A stretch of 64,000 nucleotides of DNA from an uncultured virus (IMG/VR IMGVR_UViG_3300037466_002145) (Duplodnaviria > Heunggongvirae > Uroviricota > Caudoviricetes), in IMG/VR virus record IMGVR_UViG_3300037466_002145, positions 1 through 64,000 of that record. One strand, given 5' to 3'. Under the pieces are notes generated by a model. That model did no database searches and was not told the DNA's origin. It was given only the letters and a program-made list of their open reading frames with translations. Each line of letters opens with the position of its first letter. The first letter of the stretch is position 1. The position numbers and the translations under genes were made by a program. This document shows, piece after piece, positions 31,941 through 48,099 of this stretch.

Positions 31941-32770
31941 TACTTACCTTTGCTTAGGTCGGTGACATTCGTGACATTACCAACAATCCAATGTTCGTAA
32001 TCGCGAATGGCAGTCAAAACGTCGGCGCGGTCGTCTGCCGTCATGGTAGACAGAACCGTCTTAGCTTTGACTTTGGAGTGAGAGAGAATGTAGTTGAGAT
32101 AGGTTCGCGGATTATAACCGTCCTTGGTCGGCGCGAACTTCTTGATGGCATTTTCAAGTGACAAATCTTTATAACCGAAGTCCGATTCAAAGAGGTAGGA
32201 CTCCAGGGCTGCCATGCCGTCATCTTCGGATGCGAAGATAGCGAATGAACCATCGAAGCCGATGGCCTTATGCGTCTTGGCGAAGTTGTCGTAGAGAAGC
32301 TTGCCAGGGTTGTTATATCGCCATGATATTGAGCCACCAGTGCGGACTTCAAAAGTGCCGTCTGGTTTCTTCATCGCGAAATAATACTTTTTGATCTTTT
32401 CGATGGTTGGGAAGACGGGAATCTTCGCTTCAAGGGTCGCGGCTTTGGCCTGTGCCGCTTGTGCGGTTTGCGTTGCCGTCTTGACCTGTTCGGTCAGAAC
32501 CTGCGTCTGTGAAATACTCGATTGCAGTTGTGGGGCGATCTTCTTGGTCGTCGTGACCGTCGCGGCCTGATAGGCAAGGAACCCCGAGAACAATGCCGTA
32601 ACGAAGATATGGCCGAGTGATTTCCACATCGGTTGAATTTCGACTGTCTTGGTTTCGACAGGGATCGGCGGCGGGTTTTCACTAATTTTCGGTGTTTCAA
32701 CAGTTGCTGAAACAGGCGTATCTACTGAAACAGGTTGAACAGTAGTATCAATAATTCTTTTTTCAGCCAT
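31940..32770 (-). CDS. membrane-anchored paralog of the RNNNPGN protein
   Basis: TM segment, coiled coil, GG.ISWRYNNPG..FAIF..KFAP..D. Confidence 0.6.
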   Translation of the reverse strand: MAEKRIIDTTVQPVSVDTPVSATVETPKISENPPPIPVETKTVEIQPMWKSLGHIFVTALFSGFLAYQAATVTTTKKIAPQLQSSISQTQVLTEQVKTATQTAQAAQAKAATLEAKIPVFPTIEKIKKYYFAMKKPDGTFEVRTGGSISWRYNNPGKLLYDNFAKTHKAIGFDGSFAIFASEDDGMAALESYLFESDFGYKDLSLENAIKKFAPTKDGYNPRTYLNYILSHSKVKAKTVLSTMTADDRADVLTAIRDYEHWIVGNVTNVTDLSKGK

Positions 32771-32810
32771 TGCTTATACCCAATTTGTGAGGAAATACGT
32801 CCTATTTAGT

Positions 32811-33167
32811 AAAATGCCTGCCTTCTGTTTCCAGGTGGCAGGCGACCCATGAAGCTTACGCCGCGAGGCGGATATCTTCGATAACGCTATTATCGTTTGC
32901 GTTTATACGTTTTCTTCGCGTTAACCCAGCTTAGATCGGGTACTGTCTTCTTCTCTTTTAACGTCATTCGATCCTATTTCGCGCCCATAAAGAAACACAC
33001 TAACGAGTCCTACTTTGTCCAACCGCGAAGATGGTCATATCCTAACTCGCTTCTGGTATACCCTTCATCTAGTGTGAAGGCCCATGCGGTCCAATAGTAG
33101 TGTGTTTTTTGGTGGACGCGTCGGCTTTGCAGCCGAGTCATGTCCGTATTATTACAAAAGCGTCATA
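32811..33167 (-). ncRNA. ssrA: circularly permuted (two-piece) tmRNA
   Basis: Acceptor piece TCGGC-TGCAAA-GCCGA-CGCGTCC-A-CCA (CCA 33110-12); intervening 32987-33109; coding piece starts GGGCGCG (32986, G3:U70); tag at 32900-32856 = ANDNSVIEDIRLAA*; outer limits approximate. Confidence 0.92.
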
Positions 33168-33456
33168 CAGTAATTACTTCTGCCTCTTTAGTTGAGACAA
33201 TTCCTTACCCATTTCTTTGATCTTCTCATTCAGCATGGCGATTTTTTGATCCTTACGCGCGAGTTCGCCGTTAATGCCGCCCATGATGTGATACAAAGTG
33301 TATATCTTTGGCACCTTCAATTCACCTCCGATGATTTCACGTAGAACGTGAGTCTCACCAGTTTTATGAAAGTCAGTTACCAATTCAGCCGCCAAGTCCA
33401 TTAGGGCTTGAGGCTTGCCATACTTATACAATGGATCAATTTTTATCATGGTGATT

Positions 33457-43375: not shown

Positions 43376-44830
43376 TTAGGCAGTCACACCTTCAATGCTA
43401 TAGCGCTTGTCATTGAGGGTTTCCAACATGACGTTGTATGGAGAGAACGTCTCCAGCTTGTTGGATAAAATGGACTTGAAGATAGCAGGCGAGAAGCCCG
43501 ATACCATCGCAGTGCCATTTTGGTCTTCCTTGACGGGACTGTTGTCAGCCCGTCCGTTCACATGCCAGAACACAACCTTTGGCAGATCGTATCCATGCGC
43601 CGCGAACTTGGATTTCGCGTTGTTATAGGCCAAGTCAGACAATCCAGCGCGTTGCGGATTGAATTCCATGTCCGACACAACAAGGATCATGTTTGGCAAG
43701 TCGGCTTGCGGAACATTGTAGCGAATCGCGTGGTTCAACACGAGGTCGAACGTCGCTTCGATATTCGTTCCGCCGTAGGCGTCGGCAAAGTCCAACTGTT
43801 GGTACATGTTGGATAGGGTCAACGGCCCATTGAGCTTGTTCATGCGCGGAACATTTGAGAACCCAACCCACATACCTGCGAAGTCGCCCGTTTGCTTACC
43901 AGCGGTATACAAACCGATTGACACAGAGATATCCATCGGCGTCACGTTGCCTGGAACCGCATTGCGTTGGCCGTAGTAGCTCCATGATCCCATCGAGCTT
44001 GACAAGTCAATGAACGGCAGAATCTTGTTGTCGCCAAGCAAGTTCGGCAGCGCTTCCCATTGCGCGTCGGCAACCTTTCGATCACCGTGGTTCAGGGACT
44101 TCAGCACGTCGTAAGGGAACACCGCGCCCGCATTGATCTTGCGCTCGGCCTTACCCGTTTCAGGATTGATCTTCACCAAGCCATCACGATAAGCCTTGTA
44201 CCCTTCGGGGTCGTGCTTGAAGAATGCCTTTTGATAACGTGCTGCGGCGACCGATGGCACGTGATCGTAGGTGATGCCCTTCCATTCGCGGGCGCACATT
44301 GGCGTTTCGACAACCTTCGTTAAAGTAACGAGGGTCTTGCGATAACGCTTGGGCGACCAGCCCAGGTAATTGCGGAGTGCCACGGCGTCCTTGCCCTTGC
44401 GAGGCATCCACTTGGCGCATAGGCCATTCTTGGCGTTCAGCGCGGCGGCAATGACCTTAAATGCTTGGTTGCGGGCGAAGTCGGTTTCGAAAACCAACAG
44501 GTCATCCCAACGGCCATACTCGGCCCAATATGGAAGGATCGCGACAAGGTCATCCTGATAGTTCTTTTCCATATGGCGAAGAATCTTGCGCGCAACTTCA
44601 CGTTCGCCAGCGCCACCGCGGATATCGCGGGTCCACAACAGGGTGCGGATGGCGAGTCTCTTGTCTTCGGCGGTTGCCAAATCAAACTCTTTCGAGAGGT
44701 CCGCACCGCGTTGGCCCACAGCCTTGAATAGGTTCAGAACTCGCGAACCTGAATCAGCATAGGTCACGGCACCATTGAAGGTAAGGCCCATGCTTGGCTT
44801 ATTGGAAACTGAATTGACAAACTTGTTCAT
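43376..44830 (-). CDS. DUF2828-family TROVE/Ro60-like protein with C-terminal vWA domain
   Basis: T.NGA..Y..SG, RDIRGGAGER, YGRWDDL, AKWMPR, VE..MCA.EW..I.Y..VPS, MIDAS DLSSS..GGTN..SDMEF, FW.V, SGFSP; ATG at 44830 after GGAG. Confidence 0.85.
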   Translation of the reverse strand: MNKFVNSVSNKPSMGLTFNGAVTYADSGSRVLNLFKAVGQRGADLSKEFDLATAEDKRLAIRTLLWTRDIRGGAGEREVARKILRHMEKNYQDDLVAILPYWAEYGRWDDLLVFETDFARNQAFKVIAAALNAKNGLCAKWMPRKGKDAVALRNYLGWSPKRYRKTLVTLTKVVETPMCAREWKGITYDHVPSVAAARYQKAFFKHDPEGYKAYRDGLVKINPETGKAERKINAGAVFPYDVLKSLNHGDRKVADAQWEALPNLLGDNKILPFIDLSSSMGSWSYYGQRNAVPGNVTPMDISVSIGLYTAGKQTGDFAGMWVGFSNVPRMNKLNGPLTLSNMYQQLDFADAYGGTNIEATFDLVLNHAIRYNVPQADLPNMILVVSDMEFNPQRAGLSDLAYNNAKSKFAAHGYDLPKVVFWHVNGRADNSPVKEDQNGTAMVSGFSPAIFKSILSNKLETFSPYNVMLETLNDKRYSIEGVTA

Positions 44831-44852
44831 TGTTATCACTCCTTTTTGTTAC

Positions 44853-44913
44853 AGAATTATTGCAGGCCAGTCGTGCCTGCGTGTCAGTGACGATTTTAAG
44901 CTGAAATAATTCT
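44853..44913 (-). ncRNA. CAGC-clamp RNA module E1
   Basis: AGAAUUAUU-UCAGC...AAUAAUUCU(G); internal GCAGGC/GCCUGC hairpin. Confidence 0.7.
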
Positions 44914-44919
44914 CTTACT

Positions 44920-45009
44920 GACTAATAATATGCCCCCAACGGGCCATTCCCTATAAAGGCGGGGAATGTTGGATTCGAACCAACTGTTTTTTGTGTGCTG
45001 AAATTAGTC
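44920..45009 (-). ncRNA. CAGC-clamp RNA module E2 (permuted T arm/closed acceptor/D arm)
   Basis: GACUAAU-UUCAGC...AUUAGUC; GUUGG-UUCGAAU-CCAAC, AUUCCC/GGGAAU, GCCC-GUUGG-GGGC. Confidence 0.8.
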
Positions 45010-45018
45010 GAAATTGAC

Positions 45019-45134
45019 AGATTTGCTTTTTTAAGGGTTGGAATCGAACCAACTACACTTCGCTTTGAATGCGAATGCTCAACCAAATGAGCTTCCCGTC
45101 CAGATGGACGATATTTGTTTGCTGAAACAAATCT
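45019..45134 (-). ncRNA. CAGC-clamp RNA module E3 (D, anticodon UCA, T arms)
   Basis: AGAUUUGU-UUCAGCAA...GCAAAUCU; GCUC/GAGC, UUCGC-AUUCAAA-GCGAA, GUUGG-UUCGAUU-CCAAC. Confidence 0.8.
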
Positions 45135-45152
45135 TAATCTGAAAAATTTAGC

Positions 45153-45256
45153 AGGCTTACTTTGATCCAGGCTCGCGCCTGTTTCGGGATCGAACCGAAT
45201 AACCAACTGAGTTGCCTCAGTAAGTATCTACCAGATTGTTTTGCTGCAATAAGCCT
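45153..45256 (-). ncRNA. CAGC-clamp RNA module E4 (T-arm containing)
   Basis: AGGCUUAU-UGCAGCAA...GUAAGCCU; ACUGAG-GCAA-CUCAGU, UUCGG-UUCGAUC-CCGAA, CAGGC-GCGA-GCCUG. Confidence 0.8.
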
Positions 45257-45268
45257 ATAATTAGTGGC

Positions 45269-45415
45269 GGAATAGCAGTGCTGGCACTTGAGTTTTTTTG
45301 AGTACGCCCAGGGTCAATGCTGAAACACCCTTCGTCGTAAGAACTTACCCGAAGGTTTTGTCTTACATCGTTTTACAAATGCCCTTGCGGGCGGTTTGGC
45401 TGCGGTATCTATTCC
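45269..45415 (-). ncRNA. CAGC-clamp RNA module E5 (divergent, nested second motif)
   Basis: GGAAUAG..CGCAGC...CUAUUCC; GCAA and UUCG tetraloops; nested AGGGUGUUUCAGC..ACCCUG. Confidence 0.6.
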
Positions 45416-45431
45416 AGTATTCGTGTATGTC

Positions 45432-45521
45432 AGAATGATTATCTACTTCGGGATTAATGTGGCGAAATCGAAGCCCACTTCTCTATACCAGAAAGTTTTA
45501 TTTGGTTGCTGAAATCATTCT
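45432..45521 (-). ncRNA. CAGC-clamp RNA module E6
   Basis: AGAAUGAUU-UCAGCAA...AAUCAUUCU(G); T-loop-like UUCGAUU in a GUGG/CCAC hairpin. Confidence 0.75.
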
Positions 45522-45530
45522 TGTATTCAG

Positions 45531-45869
45531 TTAGTGATGTTCGTCGCGATGTTCATCGGCCCATTCCTTGGCCGCAGCGTTACGAACAGATTTAGGAAAC
45601 ATCTTAGACCAGTGCTGATCCTTTGATCCAAACTCCTTGTGGTAAGCTTGGGCTGCACGGTCGGCATGATATCCCCAAAGCTTGATGGCTTTTTCGTGAT
45701 TGTACACGCCTTTGGCATGTTTCTTCAAAAGGTTCTTTTCAATCGGAACTTTCGAAGAATGATACAAGTGAGAATCGTTATCAGCAAAGATGCGGAGTTC
45801 TCTTACATCGGTGTGATTTACATCACCATCCTCTTTTTCAAGAAGGATTTTTCTTAGGGATTTGGACAT
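45531..45869 (-). CDS. hypothetical protein heading the RNA array
   Basis: 112-aa ORF preceded by ACTAAATA late-promoter motif (~45903-10). Confidence 0.6.
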   Translation of the reverse strand: MSKSLRKILLEKEDGDVNHTDVRELRIFADNDSHLYHSSKVPIEKNLLKKHAKGVYNHEKAIKLWGYHADRAAQAYHKEFGSKDQHWSKMFPKSVRNAAAKEWADEHRDEHH

Positions 45870-47072
45870 TACGCTTCCTATTAGAGTGAGGGTTAGTAAT
45901 GTCTATTTAGTCATTCCAAGTTGCAACGATGGCATTCACATGAGCAAAATATCTCGGACCATCTGGACCTTGAAAAGTGAAGTATTTGGCGACTAATAAA
46001 TTGGCTCCAGGTTGGAAATCCCTATCTCTAATCGCAGAGACTGCATCAACCAGCTTGCACGAATATAACAAATTCTCGGGCAAGTTTTTCTTCGACGGTT
46101 TGGACAACGGAAAGATGCCCGACACTTCAACGTAATCTTTAGTAACTGACATCTTAACTCCTATAGGGGAACTTGGTGTTGACGATGCCCATAAGGTATC
46201 CAACTGATGCCAAAAGGACCAAAGTCAAAGTGTAGGCAAAGACATTAGGGAAACTCATTATCGCAACAAGACCGATCAATAGGGCCAATCCGAGGATGAT
46301 AACCGTTTCGATCATAAATCTTCCATAGTCAGGATTTTGCATTTCAAATTACTCAGTCAAATAGCTGCGCTTGTCTTGCTTTTCCCAGGACGGTGAATCG
46401 CCGTCCTTGATGTATTCTTCCTGAATGATCCAATCGCGAATAATCGGTGCGATGGTCTCGGACGTGATCACCCATTCGGTTGCAATCGTGGCAACCACCA
46501 CAGGAAGAATGACGTACCATTGAGTCATCCACGGACCGAGGAAGTAGACGAAGATTCCCAAACTGAGGAACATCGCCACGTTGAGAACTACCCAGGCGAC
46601 ACAGGCTCGGCCCATAAATCCTGGACGGCGTACTTTCTTTGCGTCACGGTCATACATATTATAAGGTTCCTTAAAAGTCGGACGACGAGAAGTCAGGGGT
46701 TGAAAAATCCGATGTAGAATTCCCAGAATCGTCGCTACTAAAATCAGAGGTGCCCATTCCAGCCAATCCCGCGTCTTCGGTCCCACTATCCATCCCAGGA
46801 ACGGGAGACAAATCAGGAATATCGCAAGATACATCAGAAGGTCGAGTATCGTCATTATATACGTCCTGATTGGGGATCAATTCCGACATTACGATATTGA
46901 GTAAGATTGCATCCATAATCAGATCGCCGTCGTCCTCAGTTACGTTGGACCGTTGTAAGGAACGCCGTGCTTCAAACATCGATAGTGGCAGAAGGCCAGC
47001 GTTCCGACGTTTGGTATTAATTTCAGTAAGCTTCTTTTCAGAAAGCATTAGGTTCCCCCTCATGGTATTTAC

Positions 47073-47357
47073 AGGATCATCTTTATAAGTGTGCTACCCT
47101 TACACCAAGAGCCCATCAGAGATACATAAAAGCTGGCACCTGTATCAGAACCAATTAAGGCACACTTCTTAGCACACGAAGTCTAAGCACATGCCACTAC
47201 CCAACTACGAGTAGCTATCTGACCACCGAAAACCTTGCCAGTCGGCGTAGGTAGTTATCCTACTTGGCTTTCGCAGTTATGTATCTTTGGTGGACTCCCC
47301 CCGAATCGAACGTGGACCACTGCTTTGATAGAGCAAATTAGTTGCTGAACTGATCCT
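47073..47357 (-). ncRNA. CAGC-clamp RNA module E7: permuted Ala-type tRNA with internal CCA and 173-nt insert
   Basis: AGGAUCA-GUUCAGCAA...UGAUCCU; anticodon-like arm, T arm, GGAGUCC-A-CCA (47288), insert 47115-47287, GGGCUCU (47114) plus D arm. Confidence 0.8.
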
Positions 47358-47394
47358 TGATCGTTTTCATTCAAGGATATTTGGAGTATTTACC

Positions 47395-47464
47395 TGAATA
47401 GCTTTTACAGATCGATTAAAGGTCGATTGCTGGAATACCAGCGTTTATTTGCTGAAACTATTCA
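47395..47464 (-). ncRNA. CAGC-clamp RNA module E8
   Basis: UGAAUAGU-UUCAGCAA...GCUAUUCA; GCUGG/CCAGC and AUCGA-CCUUUAA-UCGAU hairpins. Confidence 0.75.
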
Positions 47465-47471
47465 AACTAGG

Positions 47472-47544
47472 TTCAATACCACGCCTGCAATCTTACGAGT
47501 AGCAGCATCCCTCCGCGAAGGGACGTTCTCCGTATGGTATTGAA
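47472..47544 (-). ncRNA. putative three-way-junction RNA
   Basis: UUCAAUACCA/UGGUAUUGAA closing helix with two internal hairpins; strand inferred from context. Confidence 0.5.
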
Positions 47545-47548
47545 ATAG

Positions 47549-47618
47549 TGGAGCCAAGTGAGGGATTTTCACCCCCGTCATCACTCATGGTGATGTTTTA
47601 GGTCAAAACTAACTCGGC
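47549..47618 (-). ncRNA. tRNA-like RNA with non-canonical loops
   Basis: GCCGAGU/ACUUGGC-U-CCA, T loop UGAAAAU, D arm GUUUU/AAAAC. Confidence 0.65.
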
Positions 47619-47624
47619 AAGAGG

Positions 47625-47721
47625 TGGAGTCGGGGGAAGGATTTGCGCCTTCAACTCTTGATGTTTGGGAGGCGGCGAGGCGTCCAAAAAATCAATACTC
47701 TAATATTTGAGTTACCCCGAC
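47625..47721 (-). ncRNA. tRNA-like RNA with expanded anticodon arm
   Basis: GUCGGGG/CCCCGAC-U-CCA, T loop CGCAAAU, 28-nt segment in place of the 7-nt anticodon loop. Confidence 0.65.
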
Positions 47722-48099
47722 ATAAAGGGAGTTATCAGATTGGCTTTTGCTTTTTTTCTCCAAAAGAAAAGGCAATTGTTTGCTGCAACCAATCTTTCAA
47801 TTTTTGTATTCTACTCGAAACGAATTAGAAAGTCAACAATTATTTTCAATTCCGAGTCATTTTTTCTTTCGTTTCTTGCGGATATCCCAATATATCTAAT
47901 AGGGTATTATCCTGTGACTTATGCCATTCCTCTATCATGGTCGATACCGTCGATATCGGAGATTGAACGATGAAGGCACGCCCATTCTCTAAGAATATCT
48001 CAGTATGGTTGGCATCCACATCCATATAGGCGGCAATCTGATAATTAAAGACAACCAATTGATTGCCAGCGTCGGTCGTGAAATAGAAACGATTATCCA

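Follow-up and report, generated by a model that had tools for sequence, protein, structure and literature searches.

A permuted tRNA-like RNA element in an array upstream of a predicted Ro60-like gene in an uncultured phage

Introduction

YrlA RNAs are encoded within 4 kb of genes for Ro60 orthologs, on the same strand, and have been recorded in 254 bacteria and 22 bacteriophages, according to the accessible text of Chen et al. 2014 (PMC4201824), in which genomes were gathered by TROVE-annotated proteins only. In the same text, YrlAs are described as RNAs with nearly invariant T and D stem-loops, an acceptor-stem (AS) stem-loop between the two, often a variable (V) arm, and a 5' GNCGAA(N0-1)G motif presumed to contact Ro60. 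Here we describe E2, an element of 90 nt encoded on the minus strand (read from 45009 to 44920) of a stretch of 64,000 nucleotides, hereafter called the window, which corresponds to positions 1 to 64,000 of the 83-kb IMG/VR virus record IMGVR_UViG_3300037466_002145 (Caudoviricetes). E2 is probably a small non-coding RNA of the Y-RNA type, carried by the contig of a T4-like phage as one of an array of at least 8 modules, and the partner of a divergent phage Ro60, encoded by a gene, hereafter the Ro-like gene, found directly downstream of the array.

Several Y RNAs may reside in one locus, and are cut from one precursor; YrlA carries pseudouridine-55, mapped with CMC in wild-type and truB hosts, and dihydrouridine, and is bound by Ro60/Rsr (PMC4201824, accessible text). 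In Mycobacterium smegmatis RNase P cuts the 7-bp acceptor stem of YrlA, after which CCA is added to the 5' half; both halves remain associated with Rsr (same source). Loss of RNA accumulation in the absence of the Rsr gene has been seen for Yrn2 and Rsr (Chen et al. 2014, accessible text). The accessible part of a second study (10.1101/312249) gives the YrlA order as AC (15–27), T stem-loop (33–49), AS (50–64), D stem-loop (67–81) and AC (83–93), with the T-loop residues U-U-C-G-A contacting two guanines of the D loop. There, most YrlAs are termed circularly permuted tRNAs with closed acceptor stems, and algae and one archaeon are reported to have permuted pre-tRNAs in which the acceptor stem is closed and the ends are paired. 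Phage systems have also been described. The Ro60 protein of the Thermus phage phiLo binds two Y-like RNAs encoded upstream, and forms complexes with the host PNPase (PMC12135203, accessible text); ROT/TROVE proteins, which have a tRNA-like partner in cellular systems, are noted from some jumbo phages (Iyer et al. 2021, accessible part).

Results

Structure and conservation of E2

The fold of minimum free energy (MFE) of the 90 nt (-23.8 kcal/mol) recovers exactly four helices, the same that the original prediction had read from the letters, namely a clamp pairing the two ends and, enclosed by it, a T arm, a loop-closed acceptor-like stem (AUUCCC/GGGAAU) and a D-like arm with UGG (Table 1). That description of E2 is confirmed. 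The order T arm, AS, D arm inside an end-paired stem, which the same prediction had likened to the YrlA module, agrees with the published YrlA coordinates. The presence in E2 of a permuted tRNA-like core mounted on a clamp, the clamp standing in the place of the anticodon stem, is well supported. The sequence features no anticodon arm, and neither the Rfam tRNA model (RF00005) nor ARAGORN calls a tRNA over 44920–45009. The 3'-acceptor-type strand is followed by G-C-C, and then by U.

Shuffled sequences have a mean energy of -17.2 ± 2.7 kcal/mol, and 3 of 200 fold as well as E2 (z = -2.48). Taken alone, this statistic sets the fold of E2 only moderately above chance, the strong part of the evidence being comparative. 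In the closest contig (L001/L002; L numbers denote the loci compared), in which the Ro-like protein is 82% identical, E2 and the neighbouring element E1 are kept directly upstream of the gene. Identity to L002 is 93.4% in E2 (85 of 91 columns), 95.0% in E1 and 98.1% in the element at 45153–45256, vs 76.0% (nucleotides) in the Ro-like gene. Changes in the L002 homolog of E2 include an A to G in the T stem, which keeps a U.G pair, an A to G which completes a seventh acceptor pair (ATTCCCC/GGGGAAT), four changes at unpaired positions, and one extra A in the linker. The latter rules out a conserved reading frame over E2, being a 1-nt insertion. Element E3 behaves differently from its neighbours: compared with L002:1267-1372, the clamp and the motif of its handle are kept, and the tRNA-like interior is different (65.5% identity, vs 93–98% in the neighbours). 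Since different interiors are thus carried by a kept handle, the sequences suggest that cargo modules may be exchanged on a fixed handle.

The minimal D arm of E2 recurs in L055:2387-2478 and L062:4061-4162. The Ro-like proteins encoded by these contigs are only 44–46% identical to that of the window.

A family of elements sharing a conserved handle

Loci for comparison were obtained by an alignment-based scan of IMG/VR. A relative of the Ro-like protein is encoded in 540 of the 600 pattern matches listed, and the best 80 loci (42–82% protein identity) have been used. Elements were collected by a script asking for a 7-bp clamp and for T-N-CAGC located 0–2 nt after the clamp 5' strand. Twenty-five T-arm-bearing elements of the permuted kind from 22 contigs, leaving out the window and the L002 homolog of E2, were aligned (alignment A3), and turned into a covariance model, R1, of 120 positions and 23 pairs, in which the D stem was added to the structure provided by RNAalifold. 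Three helices (clamp, T stem, acceptor-like stem) are predicted by RNAalifold on the plain MAFFT alignment, and 16 of their 19 pairs show compensatory changes.

The top R1 match in the window is E2 (45012–44915, minus strand, model positions 1–120), which scores 52.9 bits with E = 1.9e-10 over 64 kb and both strands, R1 E-values being rough as derived from a shortened calibration. Clamp, motif, T arm, AS and D stem are all aligned; the UGG of E2 falls on the UGG of the family D loop, and a deletion of 14 positions in the V region is placed at the E2 linker. Five more elements of the window are detected at E ≤ 1e-3, with 35.4, 32.2, 31.9, 30.7 and 26.3 bits. All R1 matches in the whole 83-kb record fall within 44915–47797, and all are on the minus strand.

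At the same threshold, R1 finds 137 matches in 60 of 80 sources (79 loci and the window, L001 and L029 being omitted as duplicates). The 133 distinct rows were arranged in an alignment (A4) fitted to R1, and pair counts are consequently biased towards the R1 structure: 95.9% of the cells are paired, vs 34–44% when partners are slid by 1–3 columns; changes at both sides from the commonest pair involve 607 cells, vs 91–133 when slid; and the covariation score is 0.343, vs at most 0.055. Compensatory change is observed at 20 of the 23 R1 pairs, with strong covariation in all four helices, and the RNAalifold result on the unfitted alignment agrees with this picture. All 7 AS pairs, and 5 of the 7 clamp pairs, show compensatory changes. 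The remaining clamp pairs are invariant (G-C in 127/128 rows, U-A in 123/123 rows), and both are found in E2, at pair 2 and pair 5, respectively. The conservation and the structured nature of E2, and its place in a large family of phage RNA elements, are well supported.

The handle can be described in 132 rows. A 5' flank UU precedes the clamp 5' strand, the consensus of which is A (64%), G (100%), G (79%), A (56%), U (98%), N, N. The motif UUWCAGCAA follows directly, read as U, U (95%), W, C (98%), A (90%), G (100%), C (100%), A (100%), A (82%). Residues A (95%) and A (86%) come before the clamp 3' strand, which reads N, N, A (99%), U, C (79%), C (99%), U (67%), and is flanked at the 3' side by G (99%) and U (79%). 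Every handle position conserved in at least 95% of the rows is present in E2, including CAGCA and the 3' flank G, and the E2 clamp departs from those of the neighbours only at covarying positions. The original prediction had placed E2 on a different handle. This stands relative to YrlA, as GNCGAA(N)G is not found in E2, but holds only superficially within the array, since only the sequence of the clamp differs.

Script elements located within 1 kb upstream of the gene are 117; a T-arm-like hairpin is seen in 39 of them and is missing from 78. What the elements all share is the handle rather than the tRNA-like cargo, and this fits a shared protein-binding site. Many of the T-arm-bearing elements are clearly recognizable as the upper half of a permuted tRNA: the T arm leads to a 7-nt acceptor 3' strand, a short loop and the acceptor 5' strand; a dinucleotide, in most cases TA, then comes before a canonical D arm (GCTC-AGTGGTA-GAGC type), which is followed by A-rich sequence and by the clamp 3' strand. 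The sequence (N)CCA is found directly after the 7-bp acceptor 3' strand in 17 of 39 complete elements (~3% expected by chance), and in all 3 complete elements with loops longer than 30 nt.

Association with Ro-like genes

Across the loci, ~187 kb on each side of the gene were searched by script; counts include a few near-duplicates (L028/L029 and L012/L015 give identical rows). Upstream of the Ro-like gene, 151 elements were found on the same and 18 on the opposite strand; downstream of it, 53 and 24, respectively. At least one element lies within 1 kb upstream in 69 of the 76 loci having enough upstream sequence, and 74 of the 151 same-strand upstream elements end no more than 250 nt from the start codon. 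R1 matches share the strand of the Ro-like gene without exception (137/137); 108 of them lie upstream of it and 29 downstream, while the gene itself contains none. Their upstream distance has a median of 176 nt (10th percentile 18.7 nt, 25th percentile 35.5 nt).

In the reverse test, IMG/VR was scanned for the handle motif alone (15 specified bases). At least 120 stretches were obtained, and 80 loci examined. A Ro-like gene was found in 38 of the 80 motif-selected loci listed, always on the same strand (38/38) and downstream of the motif in 37/38; when only sites with at least 3 kb of downstream sequence are considered, the figure is 32 of 53. In these 80 loci (L130–L209), R1 identifies 210 elements at E ≤ 1e-3.

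Among species-representative genomes, 35 loci, nearly all from metagenome bins, encode a relative of the protein; R1 matches occur in 14 of 36 sources, always on the strand of the gene. The cultured Ralstonia phage RSP15 carries two unannotated elements (67.9 and 34.5 bits) at L125:1574-1770, minus strand, corresponding to NC_030948.1 86512–86708, in a gap ~940 nt downstream of the Ro-like ORF108, annotated as 'RNA-binding protein'. The former is permuted tRNA-like, its acceptor strand being followed by GCCA; the latter features the handle only.

The predicted Ro60-like protein

E2 ends 81 nt upstream of the Ro-like open reading frame (ORF), on the same strand. The probable start of the protein is the ATG at 44830, located behind AAGGAG, and the last element of the array ends ~24 nt before this start codon, beside the ribosome binding site (RBS). 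In Pfam, the ORF matches DUF7788 (1.1e-33) and DUF2828 (3.9e-22). The only match obtained when its sequence was searched against chains of the Protein Data Bank (PDB) has E = 0.3, and was set aside as chance; the link to Ro60 needed a fold search. An AlphaFold2 (AF2) model built on 50 homologs has pLDDT 88.8 and pTM 0.86. The 12 best Foldseek rows are all Ro60/Rsr structures, from Xenopus and man, Thermus phage phiLo (9KOP and 9L5Y are among the best fold matches) and Deinococcus; alignments extend over ~520–590 columns (full length), with E from 4.5e-9 to 7.5e-6 and TM from 0.41 to 0.63. The DxSxS residues of the putative MIDAS site (D278, S280, S282) are invariant in the 50 sequences. A homolog in the Ochrobactrum phage vB_OspM_OC is annotated as 'putative Ro sixty-related protein', citing HHpred.

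The genetic linkage of E2 to a protein with a predicted Ro60 fold is well supported. The original prediction had extended the Y-RNA analogy to the whole array, and this receives support from the gene of predicted Ro60 fold downstream, from the finding of elements upstream of the same gene family in most related contigs, and from helix covariation.

Comparison with YrlA and other known systems

E2 resembles YrlA (RF02553) in having paired ends (7 bp in E2), followed by a T stem-loop, a loop-closed AS, and a D-like arm, which in E2 is minimal. The T loop contains UUCGA, and the D loop two G residues which might make the elbow. Like YrlA, E2 is found close to, and on the same strand as, a Ro60-type gene (by predicted fold in the case of E2) less than 4 kb away, at a locus which encodes several RNAs; occurrence in phages is also shared. 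In contrast to YrlA, the handle is formed by a clamp with invariant G-C and U-A pairs and by UNCAGCA(A), instead of GNCGAA(N)G; the V arm is missing, and the D loop measures 5 nt; the presumed partner protein is of the DUF2828/DUF7788 type, and is not matched by Pfam TROVE; the phage arrays are larger, with at least 8 elements here. A search with the YrlA covariance model, proposed in the original prediction as a check, failed to detect E2: sub-threshold matches of 27.6–39.4 bits, against a cut-off of 69 bits, were obtained in 4 of 10 relatives' loci scanned, the relatives concerned having full D arms. These matches show the phage family to be within reach of the model. In 14 control genomes no RF02553 match exceeded the cut-off, hence the scan had no positive control. 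No Rfam family covers E2 or the handle-only elements, either in the gathering scan of the window, in E-value scans, or in 10 relatives' loci at E ≤ 0.1. The evidence supports the view that E2 works like YrlA, without being a member of the Rfam YrlA family; the E2 family is a distinct phage subfamily, with a handle of its own and a putative divergent Ro60 partner.

The presence of (N)CCA after a 7-bp acceptor strand in 17 of the 39 complete phage elements recalls the M. smegmatis YrlA, and indicates a possible RNase P-type maturation in those copies; maturation of the (N)CCA-bearing copies to two-piece RNAs is speculative. E2 differs in this respect: no more than G-C-C, with U next to it, remains of a former NCCA, and the stem is weakened to 6 Watson-Crick pairs. 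Cleavage of E2 by an RNase P-type activity is accordingly doubtful, and the acceptor loop probably stays closed, like that of the Salmonella YrlA and unlike that of the M. smegmatis YrlA, which RNase P opens.

The phiLo system, in which a phage Ro60 is accompanied by Yrl1 and Yrl2, is similar in that Y-like RNAs lie upstream of the gene for a phage protein of (here predicted) Ro60 fold. In phiLo, the RNAs were identified via CGAA motifs and are of the stem-bulge-stem type, a tRNA-like module not being mentioned in the accessible part of the report (PMC12135203), whereas E2 lacks CGAA and has a tRNA-like core. With permuted tRNA genes and two-piece transfer-messenger RNA (tmRNA), the phage elements share the location of the 3' acceptor-side half before the 5' half, and some family members have long segments after NCCA; in contrast, E2 lacks both an anticodon arm and a tag reading frame and cannot decode, and nothing indicates trans-translation. 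Relative to canonical tRNAs (RF00005), the sequence of the T arm and the acceptor-like and D-like helices are alike, but in E2 the order is permuted, the acceptor is closed, and the anticodon arm is absent.

No description of the UNCAGCA handle, or of arrays linked to DUF2828, was found in the literature searched, which did not extend to the supplementary phage list of Chen et al. The literature found on DUF2828 holds nothing on RNA or phages.

Interpretation and alternative explanations

If E2 is a Y-RNA-type partner of the Ro-like protein, the following scheme may be proposed by analogy. The array and the Ro-like mRNA would be made as one transcript, and cleavage at the conserved flanks would release the single modules. 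The clamp and the UNCAGCA handle would serve as the site bound by the Ro-like ring. The UUCGA of the T loop and the two G residues of the D loop would form the predicted tRNA-like elbow, which might recruit a tRNA-binding partner, or shield the RNA from exonucleases. Different cargo modules could provide one protein with different partners. No RtcB, RNA ligase or PNPase was found by Pfam among 26 ORFs of the window; a repair partner is therefore not visible there.

Several observations weigh against E2 being a Y RNA. RF02553 gives no match to E2 at E ≤ 10 in 1 kb, nor at E ≤ 5 in 34 kb (cut-off 69 bits); on the whole record, at E ≤ 10, it finds only T-arm matches of at most 13.1 bits, all located elsewhere than E2. 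The motif GNCGAA(N0-1)G is absent from the 5' part of E2, which reads GACTAATTTCAGCACAC. The acceptor-like stem in the window has 6 Watson-Crick pairs and an A.C at the top, a V arm is missing, and the D arm is minimal, with 4 bp in the stem and 5 nt in the loop (GTTGG, with two G residues), the usual loop of the family measuring 7–8 nt. Pair counts in A4 carry the bias mentioned above, and 20 of the 80 sources have no R1 match. The protein has no Pfam TROVE match at E ≤ 0.01, its sequence no match to PDB Ro60 chains at E ≤ 1, and its assignment as a divergent Ro60 rests on a predicted fold. No Ro-like gene was seen in 42 of the 80 motif-selected loci listed, the stretches being short; these loci may be chance matches, short stretches, or arrays far from the gene. 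Some of the motif-selected loci (L150, L144, L166, L192, L204) contain ~10 or more elements over 6–14 kb, interleaved with tRNA genes and small ORFs, so that many copies are far from the gene; given this spread, elements are abundant in tRNA-rich regions of phages, and are not confined to the leader of the gene. Two of the three named phages having the gene, DLP_6 and vB_OspM_OC, show no R1 match at E ≤ 1 within ±3.5 kb. Finally, four rhizosphere RNA libraries include contigs which match parts of 44700–47515 at 100% identity, and cover the neighbouring ORFs too. Eighteen RNA-labelled runs share some sequence words with this stretch; four were examined, and one of them (X2) spans E2. Such contigs give neither strand nor ends and may be DNA carry-over, and are not evidence of transcription; parts left uncovered are not informative either.

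Some of these data would suit elements acting without the Ro-like protein, for example as free tRNA-elbow mimics which titrate or recruit host tRNA-binding enzymes or defence nucleases, the linkage merely denoting a shared tRNA region. The elements sit amid 16 tRNA genes and a permuted tmRNA, motif-selected loci spread their elements, up to 10 or more each, over many kb, over half of those listed show no gene, and elements are not detected close to the gene in two of the three named phages. We regard such protein-free mimics as unlikely, however: the gene, where seen in the motif-selected loci listed, is on the same strand in every case and downstream in all cases except one, many upstream elements end close to its start codon, and the predominance of elements with the handle and without T arm is what a shared protein-binding site would produce; the absence of the gene from short fetched stretches is weak evidence. 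It is similarly improbable that the array is mainly a cis-acting leader of the Ro-like mRNA, providing either processing punctuation (for RNase P, RNase Z or RNase E) or an autoregulatory site, with excised pieces devoid of function. The last element adjoins the RBS, the low percentiles of the R1 upstream distance are equally short, and the copies with (N)CCA after a 7-bp acceptor stem are likely substrates of RNase P. A leader would not, however, explain the 29 of 137 R1 matches located downstream of the gene, to which the RSP15 element can be added, nor arrays running more than 2.9 kb upstream across other ORFs; moreover, the interiors are more conserved than the gene, and the full tRNA-like core covaries, beyond the need of a cleavage signal.

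Much less credit can be given to E2 being a decaying tRNA fragment, or a rearranged tRNA pseudogene born from recombination in a tRNA-rich region and functionless. The minimal D arm, the A.C mismatch in the AS, the reduction of CCA to CC, the modest fold z, and the swappable nature of modules, as revealed by the interior of E3 in L002, could be taken as signs of decay. This is very improbable given that E2 is more conserved than the neighbouring gene (93.4% vs 76.0%), that the mini-D design recurs in contigs with distant Ro-like proteins, that the independent model R1 scores E2 at E = 1.9e-10, and that all the highly conserved handle positions are kept. Least credible is a coding or decoding role, with E2 either a permuted tRNA gene rearranged into a decoding tRNA, or part of the TTG-started ORF of 94 codons (44922–45206) which the ORF listing places over E2 and E3. 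Permuted pre-tRNAs with a closed acceptor stem do exist in algae and one archaeon (10.1101/312249, accessible part), but E2 lacks an anticodon stem-loop, and ARAGORN and Rfam tRNA are silent there; the ORF is not conserved, because another gene parts the homologs of E3 and E2 in L002, and E2 has a 1-nt indel.

The reading of E2 as a Y-RNA-type partner of the Ro-like protein may be widened. The elements might form a large, undescribed class of phage RNAs in which one Ro-like-binding handle carries exchangeable tRNA-derived cassettes, the arrays being a phage counter-measure in tRNA conflicts rather than housekeeping Y RNAs; we hold this wider proposal to be rather unlikely. NCCA follows a 7-bp acceptor stem in nearly half of the complete elements, and some have long intervening segments. 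On this view, RNase P would mature such copies to tRNA-like RNAs in two pieces, tethered to the Ro ring and with a free CCA end that might be charged. The arrays would be elbow decoys or sensors for host nucleases targeting tRNA, or adaptors which take damaged tRNA to repair or decay.

Particles of Ro60 and Y RNA are known from animals, bacteria and a few phages. The tRNA-mimicking design of Y RNAs probably accompanies also the divergent Ro60 family DUF2828/DUF7788, which searches based on TROVE could not catch; this family is common in phage contigs, and has a handle which is sharply conserved and different. Hundreds of natural combinations of handle and cargo, with visible covariation, may be used to learn the RNA code of the protein, the purpose of the tRNA elbow, and whether phages turn such particles on host defences directed to tRNA. 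Unannotated RNA genes are thereby marked in the cultured phage RSP15.

Organization of the array and its surroundings

The 83-kb record includes a homolog of the T4-type gp32, 16 tRNA genes and a permuted tmRNA gene of the alpha type. All the tRNA genes of the window, the tmRNA, and the genes flanking E2 are on the minus strand. A gap of 690 nt, with no conserved reading frame, separates the ORF ending at 45531 from that starting at 44839/44830, and the script identifies five elements in it. Three more members of the array make up a second cluster; all are listed in Table 1. The array preceding the Ro-like gene is thus made by at least 8 clamp-flanked modules.

Table 1. Coordinates of E2, of its parts, and of other features on the minus strand of the window
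Feature	Position	Strand	Basis and remarks
E2, whole clamp-flanked permuted tRNA-like element	44920–45009	-	MFE fold, R1 match
E2 clamp 5' strand, GACTAAT	45003–45009	-	pairs with 44920–44926, 7 bp in MFE fold
E2 handle motif, TTCAGCA	44996–45002	-	sequence, R1 alignment
E2 A-rich linker, 11 nt, in the place of the V arm/variable region	44985–44995	-	sequence
E2 T arm, GTTGG-TTCGAAT-CCAAC (5-bp stem, 7-nt loop)	44968–44984	-	sequence, fold, R1
E2 acceptor-like hairpin, ATTCCC / CGCCTTTATA (10-nt loop) / GGGAAT	44946–44967	-	fold
E2 single G between acceptor-like and D-like hairpins	44945	-	sequence
E2 D-like hairpin, GCCC-GTTGG-GGGC	44932–44944	-	fold; loop with two G
E2 ATATT	44927–44931	-	sequence
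E2 clamp 3' strand, ATTAGTC, then AGT	44920–44926	-	fold, R1; family consensus flank G-U-U-A
E1, clamp-flanked, without tRNA-like module	44854–44912	-	script; fold z = -3.19; last before the RBS of the Ro-like gene
E3, clamp and extra hairpin, then D, anticodon-like and T arms ordered as in a tRNA, without acceptor stem	45019–45134	-	script
Clamp-flanked element, T arm then closed hairpin	45153–45256	-	script; R1 32.2 bits
Clamp-flanked element, degenerate T-arm-like hairpin	45433–45520	-	script; R1 26.3 bits, E = 4e-4
Second cluster of handle elements	47073–47797	-	47797–47733, 47466–47391 and 47357–47073 (R1 30.7, 31.9 and 18.6 bits)
Putative Ro60-like gene, predicted HEAT-type ring and vWA with MIDAS site	43376–44839	-	487 codons; directly downstream of the array
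Promoter-like TTGACT-17-TAGAAT	47808–47836	-	consensus scan 10/12; close upstream of the second cluster, ahead of its first element

E1 is not reported by R1 at E ≤ 10. E3 is matched by the Rfam tRNA model with 38 bits (model positions 6–65), and by R1 with 35.4 bits; its anticodon-like loop is AUUCAAA in the window copy. The longest element of the second cluster, 47357–47073, is permuted tRNA-like: ACCA follows the acceptor 3'-type strand, the AS loop hosts a structured insert of ~173 nt, and the acceptor 5' strand and the D arm come next. Its fold recovers clamp, AS and D arm. A design with NCCA and an insert of 58–76 nt is found also in L052:271-460, L051:1963-2153 and L037:2043-2217.

Matches to the nearest phage records at the DNA level are four only, weak, and all inside the Ro-like gene, none being on the RNA elements. 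Promoter-like sites are 8 (6.8 expected), which is the level of chance, and the site at 47808–47836 is no more than a match to the pattern. Among the terminator-like calls, several coincide with hairpins of array elements (for example 44968–44984 and 45097–45110, both on the opposite strand, and 45221–45206, minus strand).

The L002 array is split by a DNA-methylase-like ORF (L002:1400-2310, also L001:1900-2820), for which the window has no counterpart at that place. Homologs of the 45153–45256 element and of E3 are found on one side of it, those of E2 and E1 on the other.

Two intervals between handle elements were also inspected. The 170 nt at 45263–45432 (minus strand) contain another TTTCAGCA behind AGGGTG, without a matching 3' clamp. 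A good hairpin is formed at ~45366–45331, and the fold of 45263–45335 is no better than those of shuffles (z = +1.0); the interval may be a decayed element. The interval 47467–47732 (minus strand) is strongly structured, folding with z = -3.20, none of 200 shuffles being as good. Two tRNA-like pieces are found in it; in both, the 7-bp acceptor stem ends in U-CCA, and the loop of the T-arm-like hairpin, of 7 nt, is non-canonical. A D-like arm and an anticodon-like arm of great length are present in the piece at ~47721–47628, that at ~47618–47547 lacks a D arm. ARAGORN and Rfam make no call on the tRNA-like pieces of this interval.

The tmRNA gene of the window (32765–33201, minus strand) is of the circularly permuted, two-piece, alpha-proteobacterial type, and encodes the tag ANDNSVIEDIRLAA. 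A related tmRNA gene is found at L026:1114-1542, near the Ro-like gene of that locus.

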